Positions 1-31,850 of a stretch of 64,000 bases of DNA are shown piece after piece. The stretch's first letter is position 1. Each line of letters opens with the position of its first letter. The notes beneath the pieces are model-generated. The model ran no database searches, was not told the origin of the DNA, and saw only the letters and a list, made by a program, of their open reading frames with translations. Source of the stretch: an uncultured Eubacteriales bacterium (lineage in GTDB: Bacteria; Bacillota; Clostridia; Oscillospirales; Acutalibacteraceae); NCBI GenBank assembly GCA_964613045.1, contig CAZTFS010000002.1:11108-75107 (forward strand), in the 5' to 3' direction. Made by a program: the position numbers and the translations under genes.

Positions 1-121
1 GTTTTAAAATTTTATATTAAAAGAGGATGCGTTTCGGCGTATCAATGCGGGTGGCACCGCGGGTTAAATTTTGTTTGCTCGTCCCGGGAATATTTTATAT
101 TCCCCGGGACTATTTTATTTT
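1..121 (+). promoter_or_regulatory. T-box riboswitch leader, 3' part only (T-box motif plus intrinsic terminator); the specifier region lies off-window
   Basis: Conserved T-box sequence AATGCGGGTGGCACCGCGGG at 44-63. GC-rich hairpin GTCCCGGG (81-88) / CCCGGGAC (103-110) followed by a T-rich run at 111-121. Lies directly upstream of an aminoacyl-tRNA synthetase gene. Confidence 0.8.
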
Positions 122-145
122 GTATTAAAACAGGAGGAATGCTGT

Positions 146-2227
146 ATGTACAGAACTCTATTTTGTAACGACATCTGTGACAAGCACATAGGTCAGACAG
201 TTCAGCTTGCGGGCTGGGTCGATGTTGTACGAGATCACGGCGGTGTTATCTTTGTTGATCTTCGTGACTACACAGGTGTTACTCAGGTTGTTATCCATAA
301 CGAGGAGCTTCTTAAAAATGTAAACCGTGAAACTGTTATTTCTGTAAGCGGTGTTGTTGAAAAACGTGATGATGAAACCGTTAACACGAAGATTGCAACA
401 GGTTATGTTGAATTGGTTGCAGATTCACTTCAGGTTCTCGGTAAATCTCAGAATATGCTTCCCTTTGAAGTAAGAAATTCAAGACTGAGCAAAGATGAGC
501 TCCGTCTTAAATACCGTTACCTTGACCTTCGTAATCCCAAGAACCATAACAACCTTGTTATGCGTTCAAAGATTATCAGACATCTTAGAAATAAGATGGA
601 AGACAAGGGCTTCCTTGATATGCAGACGCCTATCCTTACCGCATCATCACCCGAGGGAGCAAGAGACTTCCTTGTTCCCAGCCGTAAGCATCCCGGCAAG
701 TTCTATGCATTACCTCAGGCTCCTCAGCAGTTTAAACAGCTTCTTATGGTATCGGGCTTCGACAGATATTTCCAGGTGGCTCCCTGTTTCCGTGATGAAG
801 ATGCACGTGCTGACCGTTCACCCGGTGAATTCTATCAGCTCGACTTTGAAATGGCTTTCGCAACTCAAGAAGAAGTTCTTGATGTCTGTGAAGACGTTAT
901 CTACGATACATTCAAGACATTTTCGGATAAGAAAGTAACAGAAAAGCCTTTCCGCCGTATCACTTATGCCGATGCAATGATGACATACGGTTCGGATAAG
1001 CCCGATCTGAGAAATCCTCTCATAATATGCGATCTTACTGATTTCTTCGCTCAGGTCAATTTTCCCGCATTCAAGGGCAGACCTGTAAGAGGTATTGTTG
1101 CTGATTGTAAAGGAAAGTCAAAGAAATTCTTTGAAGATTCTCTTAAATATGCCACTTCCGCAGAAGTAGGTCTCGGCGGTCTCGGTTATATCACGCTTAA
1201 AGACGGTGTTTTTGCAGGTCCTATCGCAAAGTTCCTCAGTGAAGCTCAGAAGACTGAGATAACAGAGTTAACAGGTGTCAAAGAGGGCGAAACTCTCTTC
1301 TTCATCTGTGATGACAAGAAGAATGATACAGAGAAAAAAGCAGGTCTTATCCGTACATGGCTCGCAAGAAAAGAACAGCTTGACCTTATTCGTGATGATG
1401 CTTTTGAATTCTGTTTTGTTGTTGATTTCCCAATGTACGAGGATGATGAAGAAACCGGCGAAACGATCTTTACTCACAATCCGTTCTCTATGCCCCAAGG
1501 CGGTATGGAAGCTCTTATGACAAAAGATCCCACTGAGGTTCTTGCATATCAGTATGACCTTGTCTGTAACGGAATCGAGCTTGCATCGGGTGCTGTACGT
1601 AACCATGATATAGATATCATGAAAAAGGCATTCGAAATTGCAGGCTATGATGAAGCTGAACTTAAAAAGAGATTCAATGCACTTTATACTGCATTCCAGT
1701 ACGGAGCTCCTCCCCACGCAGGTATGGCACCCGGTATCGACCGTATGGTAATGCTTCTTACAGATGAAGAAAAGATTCTTGATGTTATCGCATTCCCTCT
1801 CAACGGCAATGCTCAGGATCTTCTCCTCGGTGCTCCCTCAGAAGTTACAAACCAGCAGCTCGAGGATGTTCATCTCTTAGGCTCAGGCAGTGCTCTTGCT
1901 CAGCGTCAGACTGCAAGCGGTTCAACAGGTTCAAGACAGTCTCAGGGCAAGCGTTCCACATTCTCAAACGCACAGCAGCTTAATCAGATATCCCTTACGG
2001 AAGATGAAGAAGCTGTTATGCAGAATATCTTCGCTGATATGAGTGAAAGTGAAAAGAAACTCGGAGCTTGTGACACGGAAAATGTTGAAGCAATGGTTCA
2101 TGTTATGGAAATGACAAATATCCTTCGTGACGATGTCCGCAAACAGCCCTTTACAAGAGAAAGTCTTCTTGAAGGTGCTCCCGAACGTAATGAAGACAGC
2201 TGGCAAGTACCCAGACTGGTAAAGTGA
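146..2227 (+). CDS. aspS: Aspartyl-tRNA synthetase (bacterial type, probably non-discriminating) fused in frame to a C-terminal GatC-like domain
   Basis: ORF 71-2227. Start moved to ATG 146 (AGGAGG at 132-137, 8-nt spacer) because the upstream codons lie inside the T-box terminator. AspRS motifs present: FYALPQAPQQFKQLLM, CFRDEDARADRSPGEF, GAPPHAGMAPGIDR, and a GAD-type insertion. The tail is GatC-like (next entry). Confidence 0.9.
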   Translation: MYRTLFCNDICDKHIGQTVQLAGWVDVVRDHGGVIFVDLRDYTGVTQVVIHNEELLKNVNRETVISVSGVVEKRDDETVNTKIATGYVELVADSLQVLGKSQNMLPFEVRNSRLSKDELRLKYRYLDLRNPKNHNNLVMRSKIIRHLRNKMEDKGFLDMQTPILTASSPEGARDFLVPSRKHPGKFYALPQAPQQFKQLLMVSGFDRYFQVAPCFRDEDARADRSPGEFYQLDFEMAFATQEEVLDVCEDVIYDTFKTFSDKKVTEKPFRRITYADAMMTYGSDKPDLRNPLIICDLTDFFAQVNFPAFKGRPVRGIVADCKGKSKKFFEDSLKYATSAEVGLGGLGYITLKDGVFAGPIAKFLSEAQKTEITELTGVKEGETLFFICDDKKNDTEKKAGLIRTWLARKEQLDLIRDDAFEFCFVVDFPMYEDDEETGETIFTHNPFSMPQGGMEALMTKDPTEVLAYQYDLVCNGIELASGAVRNHDIDIMKKAFEIAGYDEAELKKRFNALYTAFQYGAPPHAGMAPGIDRMVMLLTDEEKILDVIAFPLNGNAQDLLLGAPSEVTNQQLEDVHLLGSGSALAQRQTASGSTGSRQSQGKRSTFSNAQQLNQISLTEDEEAVMQNIFADMSESEKKLGACDTENVEAMVHVMEMTNILRDDVRKQPFTRESLLEGAPERNEDSWQVPRLVK
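1988..2224 (+). other. gatC: GatC-like domain (79 aa) at the C-terminus of the AspRS ORF, preceded by a 37-aa low-complexity linker (1877-1987)
   Basis: ISLTEDEEAVMQNIF...DTENVEAMVHVMEMTNILRDDV...ESLLEGAPERNEDSWQVPRLVK follows the GatC pattern (DTxxVEP...H...N.LReD...L..AP....f.VP.v). No stop codon separates it from AspRS. Confidence 0.7.
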
Positions 2228-2237
2228 GGTGTGCAGA

Positions 2238-3419
2238 ATGAAAAACTATGTAACTAAGTTGTTTGATAACGGTAATATTGCCGTTGATGATACAATTCTT
2301 GTGAAAGATTCTCAGACAGCGGCAGGTTCACGTATTATGGAGGGCTTCAAACCCCTGTTCAGTGCAGATGCTGTTGTTAAACTTAAAGAAAAAGGCTATA
2401 AAATATCCGGAAAAGCAAGTGTCGGTGAATTCGGACTTGATCTTGTCGGTGAATTCTCACACTATGCACCGCAGGAAGGTACTCTCAAAGGTGCATCGGC
2501 AGAGCTTGTTGCAAAGAGTGAAGTAAAGGCTGCCCTCGGTGTTGATATGAACGGTTCAACAAGACGTGCAGCTGCTCTTTCAGGCGTTGACTTTCTAAAA
2601 CCCACATACGGAACTGTTTCACGATACGGTATAATATCATGTGCCGCCTCAGGCGAGCAGCTCGGTGTTTACGCAAAGGATGCCGAAAATATTAAAGAGA
2701 TCATGGATGTCATTGCAGGTCACGACGACAAGGACGGTACAAGCCTTCCCGCAGAAAGCTATGATTATTCAATTACTGATGTACAGGGCAAGAAAGTCTG
2801 CATTATCAAGGAGCTTCTTGACAAAGCAGACGACGAAACAAAAGCAAAAGTAACTGCTTTTGCAGAAGCTCTTAATGCAAACGGTGTTACGGTTGAGACA
2901 ATCTCATGCGATCTGTTTGAGCTTGCAAACACTGCATGGCAGATTCTTATGTGTGCTGAAACATGTAACAACGTTTCCCGTTATGACGGTGTTAAATTCG
3001 GTCACAGAGCCGAAAAATACAGAAATATTGACGAGCTTTATGTAAACTCAAGAACAGAAGGCTTCAACTTCCTTACAAAGGCAGTTATTCTCTACGGTTC
3101 TGATGTTCTCTCAAAAAACAGATATAAAGACTGTTATGATAAATCTCTCAGAGTACGACGTGTCGTTGCAGACGGTATGGCAAAGCTTTTTGAAGGTTAT
3201 GACGCAGTGCTTACCCCCGTGTGCAGTAAAACTTCTTATGAAGCTTATGATATTCATGATGCATTCGGAAAAGTATTCGCTGAAAGCGTATTTACATCAG
3301 TGGCAAACCTTATCGGTATTCCTGCTCTTGTAAGCGGCGGTGTTCAGCTTATGGGCAAGCAGTTCAGTGAAAGCACGCTTCTCAGTCTTGCACACATTGT
3401 TGAAAGGAAAGGTGAATGA
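2238..3419 (+). CDS. gatA: GatA-like amidotransferase subunit A, short (393 aa) and divergent
   Basis: KPTYGTVSRYGIISCAAS, VKD (catalytic-Lys context) and a RYDGVKFG-type C-terminal region align with GatA. GAGGTG RBS at 2226-2231. Sits between the GatC-like tail and gatB, and its stop overlaps the gatB start region. Confidence 0.75.
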   Translation: MKNYVTKLFDNGNIAVDDTILVKDSQTAAGSRIMEGFKPLFSADAVVKLKEKGYKISGKASVGEFGLDLVGEFSHYAPQEGTLKGASAELVAKSEVKAALGVDMNGSTRRAAALSGVDFLKPTYGTVSRYGIISCAASGEQLGVYAKDAENIKEIMDVIAGHDDKDGTSLPAESYDYSITDVQGKKVCIIKELLDKADDETKAKVTAFAEALNANGVTVETISCDLFELANTAWQILMCAETCNNVSRYDGVKFGHRAEKYRNIDELYVNSRTEGFNFLTKAVILYGSDVLSKNRYKDCYDKSLRVRRVVADGMAKLFEGYDAVLTPVCSKTSYEAYDIHDAFGKVFAESVFTSVANLIGIPALVSGGVQLMGKQFSESTLLSLAHIVERKGE

Positions 3420-3421
3420 TT

Positions 3422-4840
3422 ATGAATTATGAACTCGTCATCGGCCTTGAAACTCATGTGGAGTTAAGTACCGAATCAAAAATATTCTGCTCATGCGGCG
3501 GTCATTCTGCAGCAAAAGAACCTAATGACTGTGTTTGTCCTGCTTGTTGCGGAATGCCCGGCATGCTTCCCGTAATGAATAAGAGAGTTGTTGAATTAGC
3601 TGTAACAGCAGGTCTTATGCTTAACTGCGAGATCAGCCGTTACACAACATTTGATAAGAAAAACTACTATTATCCCGATCTGCCCTGTGCTTATCAGATA
3701 ACACAGCTTAATCATCCCATCTGTACAAACGGTCTTGTTTCTCTCAAGACTTCTCAGGGTGTCCGTGATATCAGAATCAAGCAGATTCACATGGAAGAGG
3801 ATGCAGGTAAGCTTGTTCACGGCGGTAATTCATCTTTTGTTGACTTCAACCGTACCAGTGTTCCTCTTATTGAGATCGTTACACAGCCCGATTTTCGCAG
3901 TGCCGAAGAAGTAGTAACTTACCTTAACAAACTTAAGAATATGTTCCGTTCAGGCGGAATTTCAGAGTGTGAAGAGGGTGCAATGCGTTGTGACGTAAAC
4001 ATTTCTGTCCGTCCCGAAGGCAGTGAAGAATTCGGTGTCCGTACAGAGATAAAGAACATGAGCTCATTTGAGGCCATTGAAAAAGCTATAAAGTATGAAT
4101 CACAGCGTCATATTGATGCGCTTGAATTTGAAACAGAAGAGCTTGTACAGGAAACGAGAAGATTTGACGACGTTAGCGGCAAGACTTTTGCAATGAGAAA
4201 CAAGGAAACTGAGGCTGATTACCGCTATTTCCCCGATGCAAACCTTATGCCTATCATTATTGATGATGAATGGCTTGAAAAAATCAAGGCGGCAAAGCCC
4301 ACTGCTGTTGACGAAAAAGCTGAACAGTACAGAGAAGCAGGTATTTCCGATAAAGAAATCGATATGCTTCTTGCAAACAACAAGATTCTCAGACTTCTTG
4401 ATGACACGGTTGCTCTCGGCTGTAATATGAAAGATACGGCAGCATATATCCTCACTGACTGTATGGGTATTCTCCGTAAGGCAGGAAAAACGATCGGTGA
4501 GCTTGATATTACCGCAGAAGACCTTTCTGCTGTCATCAAAATGGTTACTGACGGCAAGATAAACAGAAATGCAGGTAAGAAAGTGCTTATCGCAATGATC
4601 GAAGACGGTGCAGACCCCGTGGAATACTGCAAGCAGAACGGTCTTGACAAGCAGGTTGATTCATCTGCAGTTGAAGGTATTGTTGATGCAGTTATAGCAA
4701 ATAATGCTCAGGCTGTAGAAGATTACAAAAACGGTAAGGTCAAGGCTATGCAGGCTCTCTTCGGTGCTTGCATGAAAGAACTCAAAGGTGCTGGTGACCC
4801 CACAGTCATCAAGACTCTTCTTGAAGAAAAACTTAAGTAA
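3422..4840 (+). CDS. gatB: Asp-tRNA(Asn)/Glu-tRNA(Gln) amidotransferase subunit B
   Basis: MNYELVIGLETHVEL, HMEEDAGK, and a YqeY-like C-terminal tail. An alternative ATG at 3416 overlaps the gatA stop (ATGA). Confidence 0.92.
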   Translation: MNYELVIGLETHVELSTESKIFCSCGGHSAAKEPNDCVCPACCGMPGMLPVMNKRVVELAVTAGLMLNCEISRYTTFDKKNYYYPDLPCAYQITQLNHPICTNGLVSLKTSQGVRDIRIKQIHMEEDAGKLVHGGNSSFVDFNRTSVPLIEIVTQPDFRSAEEVVTYLNKLKNMFRSGGISECEEGAMRCDVNISVRPEGSEEFGVRTEIKNMSSFEAIEKAIKYESQRHIDALEFETEELVQETRRFDDVSGKTFAMRNKETEADYRYFPDANLMPIIIDDEWLEKIKAAKPTAVDEKAEQYREAGISDKEIDMLLANNKILRLLDDTVALGCNMKDTAAYILTDCMGILRKAGKTIGELDITAEDLSAVIKMVTDGKINRNAGKKVLIAMIEDGADPVEYCKQNGLDKQVDSSAVEGIVDAVIANNAQAVEDYKNGKVKAMQALFGACMKELKGAGDPTVIKTLLEEKLK

Positions 4841-4881: not shown

Positions 4882-4895
4882 AAGGAATGATAAAA

Positions 4896-6074
4896 ATGAC
4901 TGAAAGACTTTTTGAAAAAGATGCTTATTGCAGAAGTTTCACTGCAGATGTACTTTCCTGTGAAGAAAAAGACGGGTTTTATTATGTCGTTCTAAATAAA
5001 ACTGCATTTTTCCCCGAAGGCGGAGGTCAGGCTCCGGACCAAGGCACAATTAACAGTGCAAATGTCCTTGATGTTCAGGAAAAAGACGGAATGGTTTATC
5101 ATAAAACAGATAAAGCCTTTCAAACGGGTGAAAAGGTGAAGTGTGAGCTTGACTGGAATTTGCGTTTTTCGAGAATGCAGAGCCATTCGGGGGAACATAT
5201 TGTATCAGGTATCGTGCATAGCCTTTTCGGCTATGACAATGTGGGCTTCCATATGAGTGAAAAAACTATGACCGTTGATTTCAGCGGACCTCTCACTGCT
5301 GAAGACATTGAAAAAGTTGAACTTGAATCAAACAAGGCGATTTACAAAAATGCACCCGTTACAGCATCTTATCCCACAAAAGAGGAACTTATAAATACAG
5401 ATTACAGAAGCAAAATCGAACCAAGAGACGGCATAAGACTTATCACAATTGAGGGTATCGACTGCTGTGCATGTTGTGCTCCGCATCCTGCATTTACAGG
5501 TGAAATCGGAATCATAAAAATAATCGATTTTTGTCCGCACAAAAAAGGAACAAGAATCGAAATGGTTGCGGGAATCAATGCTTTTTATGATTATTCGACA
5601 CTTCATTCATCAGCTAAGCAGGTTATGAATCTGCTTTCAGCAAAAAGAAACAGTATTGCCGATTTTGTTGAAAAACTTCAGGAAACTGCAAACTATCTCA
5701 AATCCGAAAACGGTAAGCTTTCAAGAAAACTTGCTCTCGCCGAACTTCAGACTGTAAACATCAACGGCTGTGCCTATTCAATTGGCAAGAATATGTCCTA
5801 TGATGACCTGAGAGCCTGTTCAAACAATCTAATTGAAAGCGGAATAAGAAAGTGCATTCTTCTTTCGGAAACAGAAGAAAACAGCTATATTTATGTCGTT
5901 AGCAGTTCTGAAAACGATGTCAGAACTATCGTTAGCTGCCTTAACAGCACTTTTAACGGTAAAGGCGGCGGAAGAGATAACTATGCTCAGGGCAAGCTTT
6001 CGGCATCGTCTGATGATGATCTGAAGATTTCTGTTGAAAAATTTTTCAACAATAAACAGATAATTGAATTCTGA
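4896..6074 (+). CDS. alaX: Alanyl-tRNA editing protein, AlaX-L type (AlaRS editing domain plus DHHA1-like C-terminus)
   Basis: HSGEHIVSG (HxxxH) and CCAPH (CxxxH) zinc motifs of the Thr/Ala-tRNA synthetase second additional domain. C-terminal GKGGGRDNYAQGK. AAGGA RBS lies 9 nt before ATG 4896. Confidence 0.8.
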   Translation: MTERLFEKDAYCRSFTADVLSCEEKDGFYYVVLNKTAFFPEGGGQAPDQGTINSANVLDVQEKDGMVYHKTDKAFQTGEKVKCELDWNLRFSRMQSHSGEHIVSGIVHSLFGYDNVGFHMSEKTMTVDFSGPLTAEDIEKVELESNKAIYKNAPVTASYPTKEELINTDYRSKIEPRDGIRLITIEGIDCCACCAPHPAFTGEIGIIKIIDFCPHKKGTRIEMVAGINAFYDYSTLHSSAKQVMNLLSAKRNSIADFVEKLQETANYLKSENGKLSRKLALAELQTVNINGCAYSIGKNMSYDDLRACSNNLIESGIRKCILLSETEENSYIYVVSSSENDVRTIVSCLNSTFNGKGGGRDNYAQGKLSASSDDDLKISVEKFFNNKQIIEF

Positions 6075-10615: not shown

Positions 10616-12064
10616 ATGCCCGAAATCAAATTCTATAACAGAGCACCGGTGCCCATGGAAATGCACAAGGTTAAAATAGTTCAGAAACTTACACTTCTCC
10701 CTGCAAAGGAGCGACTTGCAAAGCTTCGTGAGGCAGGATTTAATACATTTATGCTTCATAATGGTGACATATTTATGGATATGCTCACTGACTCAGGTGT
10801 TAATGCTATGAGTGATAATATGCAGTCAGCCATGCTCAGAGCTGATGATGCTTATGCAGGCAGTGAAACATTTTACCGTATGCGTGACAAACTTGAGGAT
10901 ATTTTCGGTATCAAGTATGTTCTTCCGGCTCATCAGGGCCGTGCTTGTGAGCATATTATAGCTCAGCGTTTTGTAAAAGAGGGTAACTGTGTTATAATGA
11001 ACTACCATTTTACAACTTCAAAGGCTCATGTTACCCGTCTCGGCGGAAGAGTTGAAGAACTTGTCAAAGATGAAGGACTTGTTTCAAAGAGCGATCTTCC
11101 TTTCAAGGGCAATATTGATCTTGACAAGGTAAAGGCATGTATTGAAAGGGAGGGTGCAGAGAATATTGCATATATTCGCCTTGAAGCAGGTACAAATCTT
11201 ATCGGCGGTCAGCCCATTTCATACGAAAATATGAAAGAAGCAACAGAACTTGCAAAATCCTACGGTATTCTTACTGTTCTTGATGCGTCTTTGCTTCAGG
11301 ATAACCTGTATTTTATCAAGACCCGTGAAGAGTCTATGAAAGATAAATCAATCAGAGAGATCACAAGAATGATTGCGGATCTGTTTGACATCGTTTATTT
11401 CTCGGCACGTAAGTTCGGTTTTGGTCGTGGCGGAGCAATTCTTGTTCGTGATGAAACTCTTTTCCATGAGATGGAAGATTTTGTAACAATGTTTGAAGGA
11501 TTCCTTACATACGGCGGTATGTCAGTTAAGGAAATGGAAGCTCTTATTATCGGATTTGAAGAAACAATGGATATGGATATCATATCACAGGGTCCTCAGT
11601 TTATTGCACACTGCGTCAGAGAGCTTGACAAACTCGGTGTTCCTATGATCACCCCGGGCGGCGGACTTGGTGCTCATATTGATGCCCGTGAAGTAGTAGG
11701 TCATATTCCTGCTGAGGAGTATCCTGCAGGTTCTCTTGTTGCAGCTCTCTATCTTTGCGGCGGTATCAGAGGCATGGAAAGAGGAACACTTTCGGAAGAA
11801 AGAAATCCCGATGGAACTGAACATATTGCATCAGTTGAAATGGTCAGACTTGCTTTCCCCAGACGAGTATTTACACTTTCACAGACTGAGTATGTTATTG
11901 ACCGAGTTAAATGGCTTTACGACCACAGACATCTTATCGGCGGCTTAAGATTTGTACATGAGCCTAAGACATTGAGATTCTTCACAGGTAAGCTTGAAGC
12001 TGTATCAGATTGGCCTGAAAAACTCATAGAAGCTTATATCGCAGATTTTGGCGAGGATCAGTAA
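10616..12064 (+). CDS. Beta-eliminating lyase family enzyme (tryptophanase / tyrosine phenol-lyase family, PLP-dependent)
   Basis: DMLTDSGVNAMSD, DDAYAGSETFY, PAHQGRACEH, FKGNIDLDKV, GAENIAYIRL, PLP-Lys context FSARKFG, GMERG, EPKTLRFFT. Strong colinearity with TnaA/TPL as I remember those sequences. Confidence 0.85.
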   Translation: MPEIKFYNRAPVPMEMHKVKIVQKLTLLPAKERLAKLREAGFNTFMLHNGDIFMDMLTDSGVNAMSDNMQSAMLRADDAYAGSETFYRMRDKLEDIFGIKYVLPAHQGRACEHIIAQRFVKEGNCVIMNYHFTTSKAHVTRLGGRVEELVKDEGLVSKSDLPFKGNIDLDKVKACIEREGAENIAYIRLEAGTNLIGGQPISYENMKEATELAKSYGILTVLDASLLQDNLYFIKTREESMKDKSIREITRMIADLFDIVYFSARKFGFGRGGAILVRDETLFHEMEDFVTMFEGFLTYGGMSVKEMEALIIGFEETMDMDIISQGPQFIAHCVRELDKLGVPMITPGGGLGAHIDAREVVGHIPAEEYPAGSLVAALYLCGGIRGMERGTLSEERNPDGTEHIASVEMVRLAFPRRVFTLSQTEYVIDRVKWLYDHRHLIGGLRFVHEPKTLRFFTGKLEAVSDWPEKLIEAYIADFGEDQ

Positions 12065-28337: not shown

Positions 28338-31300
28338 TTATGTGAATAAATTACCTACGGCTTTAAAGAATTTTATGATCTTCTTGATATATTCAACAAG
28401 CTTGTTGAACATATCCAAAAGGGAAGATGATGTTGAATTCTTCTCCTGTGCGGAAACATCTTCACAGTCGCCTGCATATTCTCCCTGTGTTGTATCCTTC
28501 TGAATTGCAAACGAATCAACATTTGTTACCTTTTCACCGTCAACAGCATAAGCATCAAAATAAAGAACTCCGCCGTCAACCGTAACTGCTGAGAACATTG
28601 AAGAATCAACTTCAATAATAGCCTCTGCTCTGGGGAATAATTCATCTGTAAGTGCTTCATCTTTCTGAAGATATGTTTTTACGCCTGACGTTCCGCTGAT
28701 AACATACGATGTTCCTGCGGGCAGTACGTCTGTTGCATAATTCTTTCCGTTATATTTAAGATATACACGCTCGGTATCTGTAACCTGATTGTCATTAAGG
28801 GCATAAGTTCTCATATATACATGGTCGTGTCCCTGGAAAACAAGGTCTATACCAAGCTCGGGCATAAGAGATGAAAGCTGAGTTCTCATAGCACATACAT
28901 CATCATCGTCATAATGTGAACCGTTGGAATAAATTGCCTTGTGTATTGCAACTATCTTCCATTGTGCATCACTTGACGCAGCATCAGCTTTTAGCCATTC
29001 TATCTGTTCATCTGAAAGTGCATCATTTTCATTCAGATCGTTAGTATTAAGCACCATGAAATGAACATTGTTATAATCAAATGAGTAGTAAGCACCTGTT
29101 GTTGTATCCTGTTCGGGCAGGTTCGAAAGTACAAACTTATTTACAATTGCGTTTTCGCCGAATGCCTCATGATTTCCTGAAGCGGGCATGTAATAAGTGT
29201 TCATTATTTCGTCTGATGCTGTGTCAAATAACCATTGCCACTGCCGGATGTTATCAGGATTGTCAACGTTGTCACCTGTGTGAAGTATAAGGTCAACATC
29301 ATACATATCGAACGCCTTATCAAGCACATTTGCCCAACCACGCTCAAACTGAGCCTGTGTCTGTGACTGAGAATCTGTAACGTTTATAAATGTTACCTTG
29401 TCAGAACCGTCCTGTGTTGTGATAGAACCCGTGTCACTCCACCAGCCACGCTCTTCATTACCCAGTCTGTAGTAATAGGTCGTACCTTCTTCAAGACCGC
29501 TGATAGTTGCGGTGTAATGATTCAGTTCAAAGTCATAATAGAAGAATCCTGTGATTCCTATATCAATACCGGGATAACTCACTGTTGCAACTTCTTCATT
29601 TACGGTAACGCTGAAATCAAGTTTATCAAGCTCTGTTGCCTTGCCTGTAAAACCGTTGAATTCGTCTGCCTTATAGATCTCAATATCGGATCCGTCAACA
29701 GTTTCTTTTGTAAACCAACTGATGTTTGCACTTGTGGCATCACTGCCGAGAGTTACGTTTATCATAGTGGGCAGTCTGTAATTTTCTGTTGAAACTTCGG
29801 GTTCTGTTGCTTCACTTGAATATGTAACATTATTATCGCCGAGATGCTGAGGATTTACGTCAGTTACAAAATCCTGAATGCAATAGGAGAAAGTGTTACC
29901 AAGTGATTCGATCTGACTTTCGGTGATGTATTCTTCCATAAGTGAATCAATAATGTCGTTAATGCTGTCGTAGGGAAGTATACCGAAGCTGAATACAACA
30001 TTTACAAGGTTCATATAGCTTGTATCGCCGTCAAGAAGACCGTTAACAAACTGATTAACACTGCAACCGAGAGAAGTGTTAATCTTGTTGCTTGAGCCGA
30101 AAAGCGAACCTATGTTGACATGCAGCTTTGAAAGAATGGCTTCATCGAGAAGATCATTAAGAATGATATCAAGAAGTGTGTCAATAATAAGATTTACATT
30201 TTCGCCGCTTTCAAACTTTTTGATAACGTCAAGCACAAATGCGTCGTCAGAGCTGTCTTCATTTCCTGTATACCAATAGTACATGGCTGAAAGGACAAAA
30301 TCGCCTAATGTACCACCCGTTGAAGTATCACCGAAATGGTAAGTGTCAATAAATTTTGTACAGGGAACATCTGATACTTTAAGATTGACTACACGGTTGA
30401 GAACGTCTTCGATCAGTGCAAGGAGATTGTCGGGATCATCAATATAGAGCTGCTCTATCTGAGTAAACAGATCCTCAATAAACCACATTATATTGTCTGT
30501 TGAGAAAATATTTATACCTATTATGCTGATACCATCGCCGATATAGGGCTCAAGCAGACCGCCGAGAAGCTCTGCAAGATCGATATTCATTGTTTTGAGA
30601 AATTCATTGATACCGCCTGCATCACTGATCTTGTCGATATAGGGGAGAAGATAATTCTTTACAATACCCATAAAGAATGCTTCCATATCAGCATATCCGT
30701 CATCAGAGTATCTGCCGCCGAAGTTGATAGCAAAAGATGCCGTGCTGAAGGGCTTTTCGTATGTAACACCGTTAACGGTAACTTCGTGAGCATAGTCAAC
30801 ATCAAACATGTCGTATGTCATTTCGCTTTCGCCGTTACCGTATGTTGTTATTGTACAATCTCTTATGCGGTTGGGGAAACCTGTAAGCGTGCCGACTTCA
30901 CAGTCATAGATGACATTTCCGTCATCAGACGTAACACTTGCAATGTCATTAGTGTGCTGATGACCTGTGAAAACATAGTTGATACCTGCATCGGCAAAGG
31001 ATTCTGCTACCCACTGATAGTCGTCGATACAGAATGCATATGTAACAGAAGGCTCTAATTCCATATGAGGTGCAATGCTGTGATGAATCATTGCAACAGG
31101 TGTTTTTCCCTGTGCAATTGCATCAGAAGCCATATTCTGAACCCACGCCATTGTTTCTTCTGTAATCATGCCGTTTGTCTGTTGCTTTCCCGGAACATCG
31201 GGATCGTAAAGGCAGGAATCAATAGCTATAAGTCTGTAATCGTCATCAAGATCAGCAGCATAGGACAGACCGCCGTTATATGAGCCGTCAGCTGCTTTAT

Positions 31301-31850
31301 ATTCACTGATTGCATGGTCGTAACCGAGGTTTGCATAGACCTCTCTGAATTCAGCCTGAGTTATGCATCTTGCTTCCTCCATAACGCCGTTTTCAAAGGT
31401 GCATGCATCATTAACATTGATATCATGGTTGCCGTTGATAACAAATACTTCGATACCTGTTTCTTTTTCAAAGTTTTCAAGAATCTCAGCAAGTTCAATG
31501 TGTGCCTGATATTCGCTGTCTTTTGTCAGATCACCCGGAATAAGAAGATACTTATATCCTTCTTCCTGTGCTTTGAGGGCTATTGAATCAAGTGCCGCAT
31601 AAACAAGAGCTTCGGATTCCTCATACTCCTTTGAGTCTGTAGAACAGAACTCCTGCCATGCCTCGCACAGATCACCTGTGTACGACTGAGGGTAATAATG
31701 AATGTCCGAAACTGCCGCAAAGGACATCGATGCTTTTACTTCTTCGGGATCAGCCGTTCCTTCAGCCACAGAGGTAAAGGCGAGTGAGAAAACTGAAAAA
31801 AGCATCATCGCAGAAAGAAAAACAGCAATAATTTTTTTTGAAAGCTTCAT
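28338..31850 (-). CDS. Secreted 1170-aa protein with two calcineurin-like metallophosphoesterase domains
   Basis: Signal peptide MKLSKKIIAVFLSAMMLFSVFSLAFTSVA. Domain 1: SDIHYY, GDLT, NGNHD, GHQHTND. A PAP-N/FN3-like segment (TYYYRLG). Domain 2: HTGDNVD, SGNHE, IHKAIYS, QGHDHVY. Confidence 0.85.
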   Translation of the reverse strand: MKLSKKIIAVFLSAMMLFSVFSLAFTSVAEGTADPEEVKASMSFAAVSDIHYYPQSYTGDLCEAWQEFCSTDSKEYEESEALVYAALDSIALKAQEEGYKYLLIPGDLTKDSEYQAHIELAEILENFEKETGIEVFVINGNHDINVNDACTFENGVMEEARCITQAEFREVYANLGYDHAISEYKAADGSYNGGLSYAADLDDDYRLIAIDSCLYDPDVPGKQQTNGMITEETMAWVQNMASDAIAQGKTPVAMIHHSIAPHMELEPSVTYAFCIDDYQWVAESFADAGINYVFTGHQHTNDIASVTSDDGNVIYDCEVGTLTGFPNRIRDCTITTYGNGESEMTYDMFDVDYAHEVTVNGVTYEKPFSTASFAINFGGRYSDDGYADMEAFFMGIVKNYLLPYIDKISDAGGINEFLKTMNIDLAELLGGLLEPYIGDGISIIGINIFSTDNIMWFIEDLFTQIEQLYIDDPDNLLALIEDVLNRVVNLKVSDVPCTKFIDTYHFGDTSTGGTLGDFVLSAMYYWYTGNEDSSDDAFVLDVIKKFESGENVNLIIDTLLDIILNDLLDEAILSKLHVNIGSLFGSSNKINTSLGCSVNQFVNGLLDGDTSYMNLVNVVFSFGILPYDSINDIIDSLMEEYITESQIESLGNTFSYCIQDFVTDVNPQHLGDNNVTYSSEATEPEVSTENYRLPTMINVTLGSDATSANISWFTKETVDGSDIEIYKADEFNGFTGKATELDKLDFSVTVNEEVATVSYPGIDIGITGFFYYDFELNHYTATISGLEEGTTYYYRLGNEERGWWSDTGSITTQDGSDKVTFINVTDSQSQTQAQFERGWANVLDKAFDMYDVDLILHTGDNVDNPDNIRQWQWLFDTASDEIMNTYYMPASGNHEAFGENAIVNKFVLSNLPEQDTTTGAYYSFDYNNVHFMVLNTNDLNENDALSDEQIEWLKADAASSDAQWKIVAIHKAIYSNGSHYDDDDVCAMRTQLSSLMPELGIDLVFQGHDHVYMRTYALNDNQVTDTERVYLKYNGKNYATDVLPAGTSYVISGTSGVKTYLQKDEALTDELFPRAEAIIEVDSSMFSAVTVDGGVLYFDAYAVDGEKVTNVDSFAIQKDTTQGEYAGDCEDVSAQEKNSTSSSLLDMFNKLVEYIKKIIKFFKAVGNLFT

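Follow-up and report, generated by a model that had tools for sequence, protein, structure and literature searches.

The stretch analyzed here (the window) comprises 64,000 nucleotides (nt) of a contig from an uncultured Eubacteriales bacterium of the Acutalibacteraceae (GenBank assembly GCA_964613045.1, contig CAZTFS010000002.1, positions 11,108–75,107), and its first 6 kb form a single co-directional gene string: the tail of a T-box-type leader, a fusion of aspartyl-tRNA synthetase (AspRS) with GatC (aspS::gatC), a short gatA homologue (gatA′), gatB, and an AlaX-type gene. As judged from its sequence, GatA′ retains an amidase-signature fold and still stands between GatC and GatB, but has lost glutamine binding and hydrolysis. 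We favor, with moderate confidence, the reading that the operon encodes a transamidosome responsive to tRNA(Asn), with GatA′ as a pseudo-glutaminase scaffold and with ammonia, not glutamine, as the amide donor; the enzyme that makes Asn-tRNA here probably runs on free ammonia.

Residues were mapped by HMMER alignment to six solved GatAs (Aquifex, S. aureus, Thermotoga) and are given in S. aureus numbering. The catalytic Lys79 column is occupied by Asp17 of GatA′ (codon 2286–2288), with IAVDD (residues 14–18) opposite IAVKD or MGIKD; a preliminary description of this DNA had taken VKD at residues 22–24 for the catalytic-lysine motif, an assignment that the alignment does not support. The cis-Ser154 column is Leu83 (codon 2484–2486), where EGTLKGASAELVA (nt 2475–2513) aligns with GGSSGGSAAAVA, and the column of the nucleophile Ser178 is Ser107 (codon 2556–2558), where GVDMNGSTRRAA (nt 2538–2573) aligns with GSDTGGSIRQPA; on both points HMMER agrees with the earlier hand alignment, which had the cis-serine lost and the nucleophile kept. 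In place of the Gly/Ser signature GGSS[GS]GS, GatA′ has GTLKGAS (residues 81–87, opposite GGSSGGS), and GVDMNGS stands opposite the canonical GSDTGGS. The preliminary description had allowed that a proper alignment might restore an intact Ser-cisSer-Lys triad and Gly-rich loop; it does not, two of the three triad members being gone. The glutamine-binding residues of S. aureus GatA, Tyr309, Arg358, and Asp425 (bioRxiv 10.1101/733030; equivalent roles in yeast GatA are described in PMC4027206), are likewise replaced: Arg358 by Val283 (3084–3086) and Asp425 by Ser350 (3285–3287) in the HMMER alignment, and Tyr309 by Trp234 (2937–2939) in an S. aureus-anchored column comparison. Thr175 and Asp211 of GatA are Met and Glu, respectively, in GatA′.

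Across 81 orthologues the Lys79 column holds Asp in 80 and Glu in one, and the glutamine-binding columns hold Trp (81/81, for Tyr309), Val (81/81, for Arg358), and Ser (78/81, for Asp425). The nucleophile column is Ala in 42, Ser in 34, Thr in four, and Gly in one, and appears to be under no selection. A rewired Ser107–Lys84 dyad was considered and rejected, because the column after the cis-serine (Lys84 in the window) holds ten different residues (K, E, S, A, G, L, H, T, V, Y) and Ala predominates in column 107. The earlier suspicion that the glutaminase half-reaction is impaired thus gains support from the loss of Lys79, cis-Ser154, and all three glutamine-binding residues and from the drift of the nucleophile column; the degeneracy of GatA′ exceeds that first described, and the sequence case for impairment is stronger than its author knew. 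Lacking these catalytic and glutamine-binding residues, GatA′ would not provide the amide nitrogen by hydrolyzing glutamine, and free ammonia would be the simplest source.

The losses are not spread evenly over the protein. Sixty-six columns with conservation of 90% or more among 68 canonical GatAs were compared with the degenerate family, which loses K79, D125, M129, G130, G157, S158, T175, G176, S178, P182, G190, Y309, R358, and D425. It keeps S93, E126, F127, D174, G177, R180, P193, Y195, G196, S199, R200, G202, S209, D234, and D237, as well as E316, N320, R323, D325, G326, G330, R347, G362, P402, G435, P437, and Q454; about thirty near-invariant positions are retained in all, among them the KPTYG-SR-G block, whose conservation in the window (as KPTYG.VSRYG) had been pointed out before. 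Since the loss centers on the active site while the remainder is retained, the pattern appears to be that of a pseudoenzyme with maintained fold and interfaces, and not that of general decay or of an enzyme turned to a new substrate.

The shortness of GatA′ (393 amino acids, aa) and the absence of its N-terminal region, both noted previously, hold: the open reading frame (ORF) at 2238–3419 is closed by an upstream stop codon, and the family profiles match only in part. Pfam Amidase (PF01425) matches with 185.5 bits (E 2.5e-54, cut-off 27) over profile positions 52–445 only, and the TIGR00132 gatA equivalog model with 267.7 bits (cut-off 481.1) over model positions 60–463, leaving 1–59 unmatched, so that some 55–60 N-terminal residues are absent by either profile. 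Relative to Aquifex GatA the HMMER alignment lacks 85 residues in all: 55 at the N-terminus, nine just ahead of the Gly/Ser loop, four in small internal gaps, nine in the last loop, and eight at the C-terminus. Supply of the N-terminus from upstream or by fusion was rejected, as the stop codon right before the ORF excludes a longer frame and relatives in which GatC is a separate protein are just as short. The top six PDB sequence matches are GatA chains, as are the ten best PDB fold matches of an AlphaFold2 model (predicted local distance difference test score, pLDDT, 81.6; predicted template modeling score, pTM, 0.88), with template modeling (TM) scores of 0.79–0.83 on the query; the model also matches amidase-signature enzymes by fold. 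Residues 247–292 are its sole low-confidence stretch, yet belong to the most sequence-invariant parts of the protein, a combination that might be expected of a segment ordering against a partner. With GatAs as its closest homologues and structures, and its gene placed between gatC and gatB, the product is GatA-like; it lies outside the GatA equivalog family, whose defining catalytic features fail here, and is best filed as part of a variant GatCAB transamidosome.

A homologue search of 5.8 billion proteins returned 4903 matches at E ≤ 1e-5; the 120 best of these are all at least 79% identical, 393–394 aa long, and from Clostridia or Acutalibacteraceae metagenome-assembled genomes (MAGs); where their source records give a name, it is “hypothetical protein” or “amidase family protein”. 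Close relatives of gatA′ occur in at least 186 species-representative genomes, and a scan from a more distant member matched 318. No cultured carrier is found among 160 loci listed from these 186 and 318 matching genomes, the listed genomes all being uncultured MAGs; the listed carriers with a recorded host are mostly from ruminant or other herbivore guts. The median ratio of non-synonymous to synonymous substitution rates (dN/dS; Nei–Gojobori, 300 random pairs) is 0.125 for gatA′, 0.065 for aspS::gatC, and 0.073 for gatB, and 139 of the 393 GatA′ positions are invariant in 81 sequences; gatA′ is thus under strong purifying constraint, about two-fold relaxed relative to aspS::gatC and gatB. 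Loss of catalytic residues together with continued purifying selection and retained partner genes is what is expected of a pseudoenzyme. The alternative raised at the outset, that the short form is simply the functional GatA of its clade, stands in part: the form is clade-wide and may be the sole one, but this does not rescue catalysis, since the catalytic columns vary.

The wider family was surveyed by searching 1.84 billion cluster representatives (50%-identity clusters) exhaustively with HMMER. Among the 142 best representatives with a residue in the Lys79 column, 68 lack Lys79; 49 of these have Asp or Glu there, 40 are N-terminally truncated in the same way, and only 18 keep Ser178. Across the wider family the nucleophile column may hold A, S, E, K, Q, or Y, among other residues. 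Full-length GatA homologues (470–500 aa) without Lys79, and often without Ser178, were also seen (P0168, P0172, P0182, P0187, P0188, P0232, and others; L166, 8001–9425), at least one of them labeled GatA by its source. In a crude neighbor-joining tree the truncated forms cluster together, apart from canonical K-S-R-D proteins, and some full-length degenerate forms are scattered among canonical GatAs; the triad may have been lost more than once, and before truncation. Distant degenerate GatAs (34–49% identical) lie in plain gatC–gatA′–gatB operons without aspS; one of them, a full-length degenerate form from a Peptococcaceae MAG (L166, the sole distant aspS-less branch checked), has no T-box ahead of its operon. 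In a 403-aa relative (L170) unfused aspS, gatC, gatA′, and gatB are consecutive, and a 396-aa relative already has the AspRS–GatC fusion. These contexts, taken with the crude tree, suggest that triad loss was followed by truncation, then by linkage to aspS, and then by fusion. [quoted passage not shown]

The partner GatB is full-length (NCBIfam 568.9 bits against a cut-off of 338; PDB GatB match, E 3.9e-124) and retains the motifs GLExH, HxEEDAGK, PLIEIV, RCDxN, and DYRYFP, within which lie the Mg2+ ligands as well as the kinase/transamidase site (for what the His and Glu ligands do, see PMC2330236 and PMC4027206). When 78 GatBs partnered with a degenerate GatA were compared with 49 GatBs of canonical loci from many phyla, 16 of 92 canonical columns (≥95% conserved) were found to differ, and four columns, 96–100% conserved in the 49 canonical proteins, are changed in 78/78 partnered GatBs, the deepest branches included:

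R in FDRKNY: K81 in the window, K in the other partnered GatBs
K in PDLPK: C91 in the window, N, A, or T in the others
R before IHxEED: Q123 in the window, Q in the others
Q in YExxRQ: H232 in the window, H in the others

Whatever the exact role of the four columns, such column-wide substitution argues that GatB co-evolved with the dead A subunit. We take the PDLPK lysine to be S. aureus Lys88 (H. pylori Lys89), a proposed ammonia-tunnel residue, and Thr175 and Asp211 of GatA to be its counterparts on the GatA side. The four positions are targets for mutagenesis of the ammonia path to the transamidase site. Further changed residues of the window GatB are 148, 166, and 276, and FPDPDL reads FPDANL (D to N) in close-clade GatBs.

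The gene string, all on the forward strand, is arranged as follows:

1–122 (+): 3′ part of a T-box-type leader, recognized by reading the sequence; its 5′ part is cut off by the window edge
146–2227 (+): aspS::gatC fusion, from Pfam and NCBIfam domain matches
2238–3419 (+): gatA′, N-terminally truncated, putatively glutaminase-dead GatA homologue of 393 aa, from HMMER, Pfam, NCBIfam, and the AlphaFold2 model
3416–4840 (+): gatB, full-length, catalytic domain and YqeY tail, from the NCBIfam GatB and PDB GatB matches
4887–6074 (+): AlaX-type alanyl-tRNA editing-domain protein with a DHHA1 domain, from Pfam and NCBIfam

A Shine-Dalgarno sequence (AGGAGG, 132–137) precedes aspS::gatC. The gatA′ ATG lies 11 nt past the aspS::gatC stop codon, with an in-frame GTG at 2229 and a Shine-Dalgarno-like GAGGTG 6 nt 5′ of the ATG, and gatA′ overlaps gatB by 4 nt (ATGA), in an arrangement of translational coupling. 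The order aspS::gatC–gatA′–gatB recurs in 79/80 related loci, the remaining locus being cut off upstream. From gene order, translational coupling, and the co-varying GatB columns we infer a physical association of GatA′ with GatB and GatC.

The fusion product, 88–94% identical in 79 related loci, comprises an anticodon-binding oligonucleotide-binding (OB) fold, a class II core, a GAD domain, a Ser/Gly/Gln-rich linker, and GatC (at about nt 1994–2209), in that order. Its Pfam matches are tRNA-synt_2 (1.2e-111), tRNA_anti-codon, GAD, and GatC (2e-10, residues 618–689), and its NCBIfam matches are aspartate--tRNA ligase (744.6 bits) and TIGR00135 gatC (47.8 bits against a cut-off of 47.1); the AspRS part is of bacterial type. 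In the canonical relatives nearest the query (L173–L175, 3350–7909), gatC–gatA–gatB follows a short AspRS of archaeal type (443 aa, lacking a GAD domain), and the string adjoins a glutamine synthetase gene and an ANTAR regulator; this is a different aspS–gatCAB linkage.

The leader was detected by reading bases 1–122 by eye and then by an E-value-threshold search. The T-box sequence TGCGGGTGGCACCGCGGG lies at 46–63, followed by a GC-rich terminator hairpin at about 82–109, a T-run at 111–121, and then AGGAGG and the aspS start. Typical T-box features found are GGGTGGCACCGCGGG, a mutually exclusive terminator with its T-run, and a specifier codon plus purine above a basal helix. The Asn specifier, AAC followed by A, falls upstream of the window start and was seen in related loci: in an alignment of 59 leaders with the window, AACA occurs in 53/59 leaders and AACG in one more, and the helix below is built from more than 20 different complementary sequence pairs. 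Ten leaders folded with RNAalifold share a basal helix, 4/6 pairs of which show compensatory changes, and the invariant AACA forms the 3′ side of the internal loop above it, a minimal loop (one base opposite four); the GG-AAC-A-helix arrangement is also present in the more distant L168 and L170. As AAC plus purine directly above the basal helix is the T-box specifier position, we read the operon as induced by uncharged tRNA(Asn). This leader favors the specialized amidotransferase that the preliminary description had envisaged. The leader is atypical, because a conserved sigma-70 promoter (TTGACA-17-TATAAT) sits where RF00230 places the 5′ strand of stem I. Full leaders of related loci (L001, 3623–3853; L168, 5633–5819; L170, 5525–5750) match Rfam RF00230 over model positions 1–219, the scores being, from highest to lowest, 46.6, 43.6, and 34.1 bits (E 4.6e-9 to 5.8e-6). 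Neither the window nor ten loci gave an RF00230 match at the gathering score, the match in the window being missed because the window starts inside the leader; current Rfam thresholds miss such leaders. No tRNA(Asn) gene was available for a check of the U1–A72 identity pair, there being no Rfam tRNA match in the window and no tRNA(Asn) gene in six loci searched with ARAGORN.

In the favored mechanism the Asn-specifier leader would turn the operon on when tRNA(Asn) is uncharged, the AspRS moiety would load Asp onto tRNA(Asn), and GatB, which the fused GatC and the scaffolding GatA′ would hold on the synthetase, would phosphorylate Asp-tRNA(Asn) with ATP and amidate it with free ammonia from the ammonia-rich gut in place of glutamine-derived ammonia. 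This presupposes complex formation, ammonia as donor, a non-discriminating AspRS, and GatA′ as the sole A subunit of the complex. Rumen and hindgut fluids hold millimolar ammonia, and its direct use spares the ATP of glutamine synthetase. Amidotransferases of this type transamidate in vitro with 20 mM NH4Cl replacing glutamine, and when the peptide over the GatA site is trimmed in yeast GatFAB, glutaminase activity falls and transamidation with NH4Cl rises (PMC4027206). GatC wraps the A–B interface and GatA needs GatC for folding (PMC2330236; PMC4027206), which would explain why GatA′ has been retained; on these grounds we infer that the complex structurally requires its A subunit. Literature searches, whose coverage excluded most subscription papers, found no description of a catalytically dead GatA or of an ammonia-dependent GatCAB.

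A more speculative extension, to which we hold only tentatively, is that the dead pocket has become an ammonium entry port, and that a natural, widespread class of ammonia-dependent enzymes (GatCA*B) exists in energy-limited gut anaerobes. The Asp or Glu replacing Lys79, beside the conserved Asp80 and Asp174, would form an acidic NH4+ trap that loss of the N-terminal helices would uncover; the conserved polar residues R200, D211E, R323, and E316 would still lead to GatB, whose tunnel end would have co-adapted (R to K, K to C, R to Q, Q to H). In some lineages Asn-tRNA(Asn), and perhaps Gln-tRNA(Gln) as well, might be made by way of GatCA*B alone.

Several points weigh against the ammonia-driven transamidosome. 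The RF00230 matches of the related leaders all fall below the gathering score of 93. Canonical gatA, gatCAB, asparaginyl-tRNA synthetase, a second AspRS, or AsnA/AsnB may lie elsewhere in the carrier genomes. By analogy with C. acetobutylicum, an Asn-responsive T-box on aspS suggests an accessory module, with which a housekeeping GatCAB could coexist, and it makes an additional housekeeping AspRS plausible. Finally, the GatB changes at putatively tunnel-lining positions could mean that the A-to-B tunnel is broken and not re-used.

The alternative that survives best, although we consider it rather unlikely, is that a canonical gatA or gatCAB coexists and that GatA′ is an alternative or regulatory subunit (a competitor for GatB/GatC, or part of an Asn-specific complex), with canonical GatA supplying glutamine-derived ammonia or the module serving as a back-up. 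In C. acetobutylicum a T-box controls additional copies of AspRS and GatCAB (Saad et al., 2012, as cited in PMC4206432), the GatA-like Tse8 is reported to pull down with the transamidosome and is proposed to act via that interaction (bioRxiv 10.1101/733030), and the Asn-specifier T-box itself argues for an accessory, inducible module. However, the operon carries its own GatB and GatC and needs no foreign A subunit, its GatB has changed in step with the degenerate A subunit at four columns that are otherwise invariant, and distant degenerate genes stand in plain gatC–gatA–gatB operons without aspS, that of L166 without a T-box. The 150 canonical gatA loci returned by two scans, one from a canonical Oscillospirales GatA and one from a profile, include none from the 87 gatA′ assemblies, which is weak evidence with almost no statistical power; the canonical GatAs most similar to the query lie in ordinary gatC–gatA–gatB operons on contigs outside these assemblies.

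That GatA′ is still a hydrolase, with a site rewired around an invariant cluster of Asp17, Asp18, Asp103, Asn105, Arg109, and Arg110 and acting on another amide donor, we regard as improbable. The D-M-N-G-x-x-R-R loop and the Asp-Asp pair are indeed invariant in the 81 orthologues, and the Lys79 column is acidic in 49 of the 68 degenerate representatives; against this, neither the close orthologues nor the wider family has a conserved nucleophile, and Asn105 is not general in the wider family. We know of no amidase-signature enzyme that works without its Ser nucleophile. The different amide donor hydrolyzed by GatA that had been entertained beforehand is disfavored on the same ground. Slightly less probable again is a complex that does not amidate, and instead binds, protects, or edits Asp-tRNA(Asn) or acts through the GatB kinase only, its A subunit being a departing relic. 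GatA′ does evolve about twice as fast as its neighbors, and several otherwise conserved GatB columns are changed, including D to N in FPDPDL; yet a dN/dS of 0.125 over at least 186 species is strong constraint, the GatB catalytic motifs are all kept, and an operon induced by uncharged tRNA(Asn) would be expected to raise Asn-tRNA(Asn). A pseudogene, frameshift, or mis-assembly, for which short length alone could be cited, was rejected and has a negligible chance of being correct, given a length of 392–399 aa in hundreds of independent assemblies, an intact frame, a Shine-Dalgarno sequence, coupling to gatB, and purifying selection.

Descriptions of GatCAB present glutaminase, kinase, and transamidase as obligately coupled; most bacteria cannot live without the enzyme, and it is regarded as a drug target. 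If the ammonia-driven transamidosome is real, cells with ample ammonia can do without the glutaminase half in vivo, and these lineages are a natural experiment on the non-catalytic contribution of GatA (scaffolding, tunnel, allostery). For annotation, the consequence may be that Asn- and Gln-tRNA synthesis and nitrogen use are miscalled when the metabolism of rumen and hindgut Clostridia is reconstructed.

The AlaX-type protein has Pfam matches to the C-terminal part of tRNA-synt_2c, to tRNA_SAD, and to DHHA1, and an NCBIfam AlaXM match of 143.9 bits, below the cut-off of 300. Its gene is possibly the operon’s last, with an accessory role; an AlaX-like gene is found downstream of gatB within the fetched stretch in 21/80 related loci. 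Directly 3′ of gatB it would add a second tRNA-quality-control function to the gene string. Among ten large ORFs profiled in the rest of the window there is no further amidase, aminoacyl-tRNA synthetase, or asparagine synthetase, and G+C content is ~40% across the whole window. A tryptophanase-family beta-eliminating lyase (10616–12064, +; 558.8 bits to NF009709) suggests, from its family match, indole production by this gut organism, and a 1170-aa ORF (28338–31850, −) weakly matches, at its N-terminus, the anti-phage phosphoesterase family DS9_1 (51 bits; cut-off 420).

The module shares its gene set and order, GatA fold (TM 0.8), intact GatB, and association with AspRS with canonical GatCAB (S. 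aureus 2DF4, A. aeolicus 3H0L, T. maritima 3AL0) and with the Asn-transamidosomes (T. thermophilus 3KFU, P. aeruginosa 4WJ3). In contrast to these, GatA′ lacks ~55–60 N-terminal residues, Lys79, cis-Ser154, the GGSSGGS loop, T175/G176, and all three glutamine-binding residues, GatC is fused to AspRS, and GatB carries four lineage-wide substitutions. The aspS-gatCAB module of C. acetobutylicum likewise combines AspRS and amidotransferase genes in one operon behind a tRNA(Asn)-reading T-box (Saad et al., 2012, 2013, as cited in PMC4206432). The window differs from it in its atypical T-box (below the Rfam gathering score, promoter at the stem I 5′ strand) and in its apparently dead GatA. The C. 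acetobutylicum GatA is, as far as is known, catalytically normal and its GatC unfused. The NCBIfam family NF009460 (PRK12820), bifunctional AspRS/GatC, has the same AspRS-then-GatC order; as the aspS::gatC product reaches 460.1 bits against a cut-off of 1379, the fusion is an analogous one, probably independent, and not a member.

Other parallels concern the fate of GatA itself. Tse8 of P. aeruginosa is also a GatA-like amidase-family protein with diverged glutamine-binding residues and a reported transamidosome interaction (bioRxiv 10.1101/733030), but it keeps the Ser-cisSer-Lys triad and is a secreted toxin encoded outside a gat operon, whereas GatA′ is without the triad and is its operon’s own A subunit. 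AtzE–AtzG (PDB 6C62), a complex termed vestigial GatA/GatC-like, is among the fold matches of GatA′; AtzE resembles GatA′ as a GatA-derived amidase-signature protein still paired with a GatC-like partner. It has lost GatB and remains active as a hydrolase, while GatA′ appears to have lost catalysis and kept GatB. In NAD synthetase NadE (PMC3376133), and in AsnA as against AsnB, the synthetase half also uses free ammonia without a glutaminase half, the glutaminase domain being simply missing; here it is kept as a dead, trimmed subunit, presumably as a scaffold for GatB and GatC. Yeast GatFAB with a truncated GatF N-terminal domain (PMC4027206) provides the experimental precedent for the proposed shift to ammonia, but is a laboratory deletion in a GatC-like subunit with the triad intact, whereas in GatA′ the loss is natural and lies in GatA.

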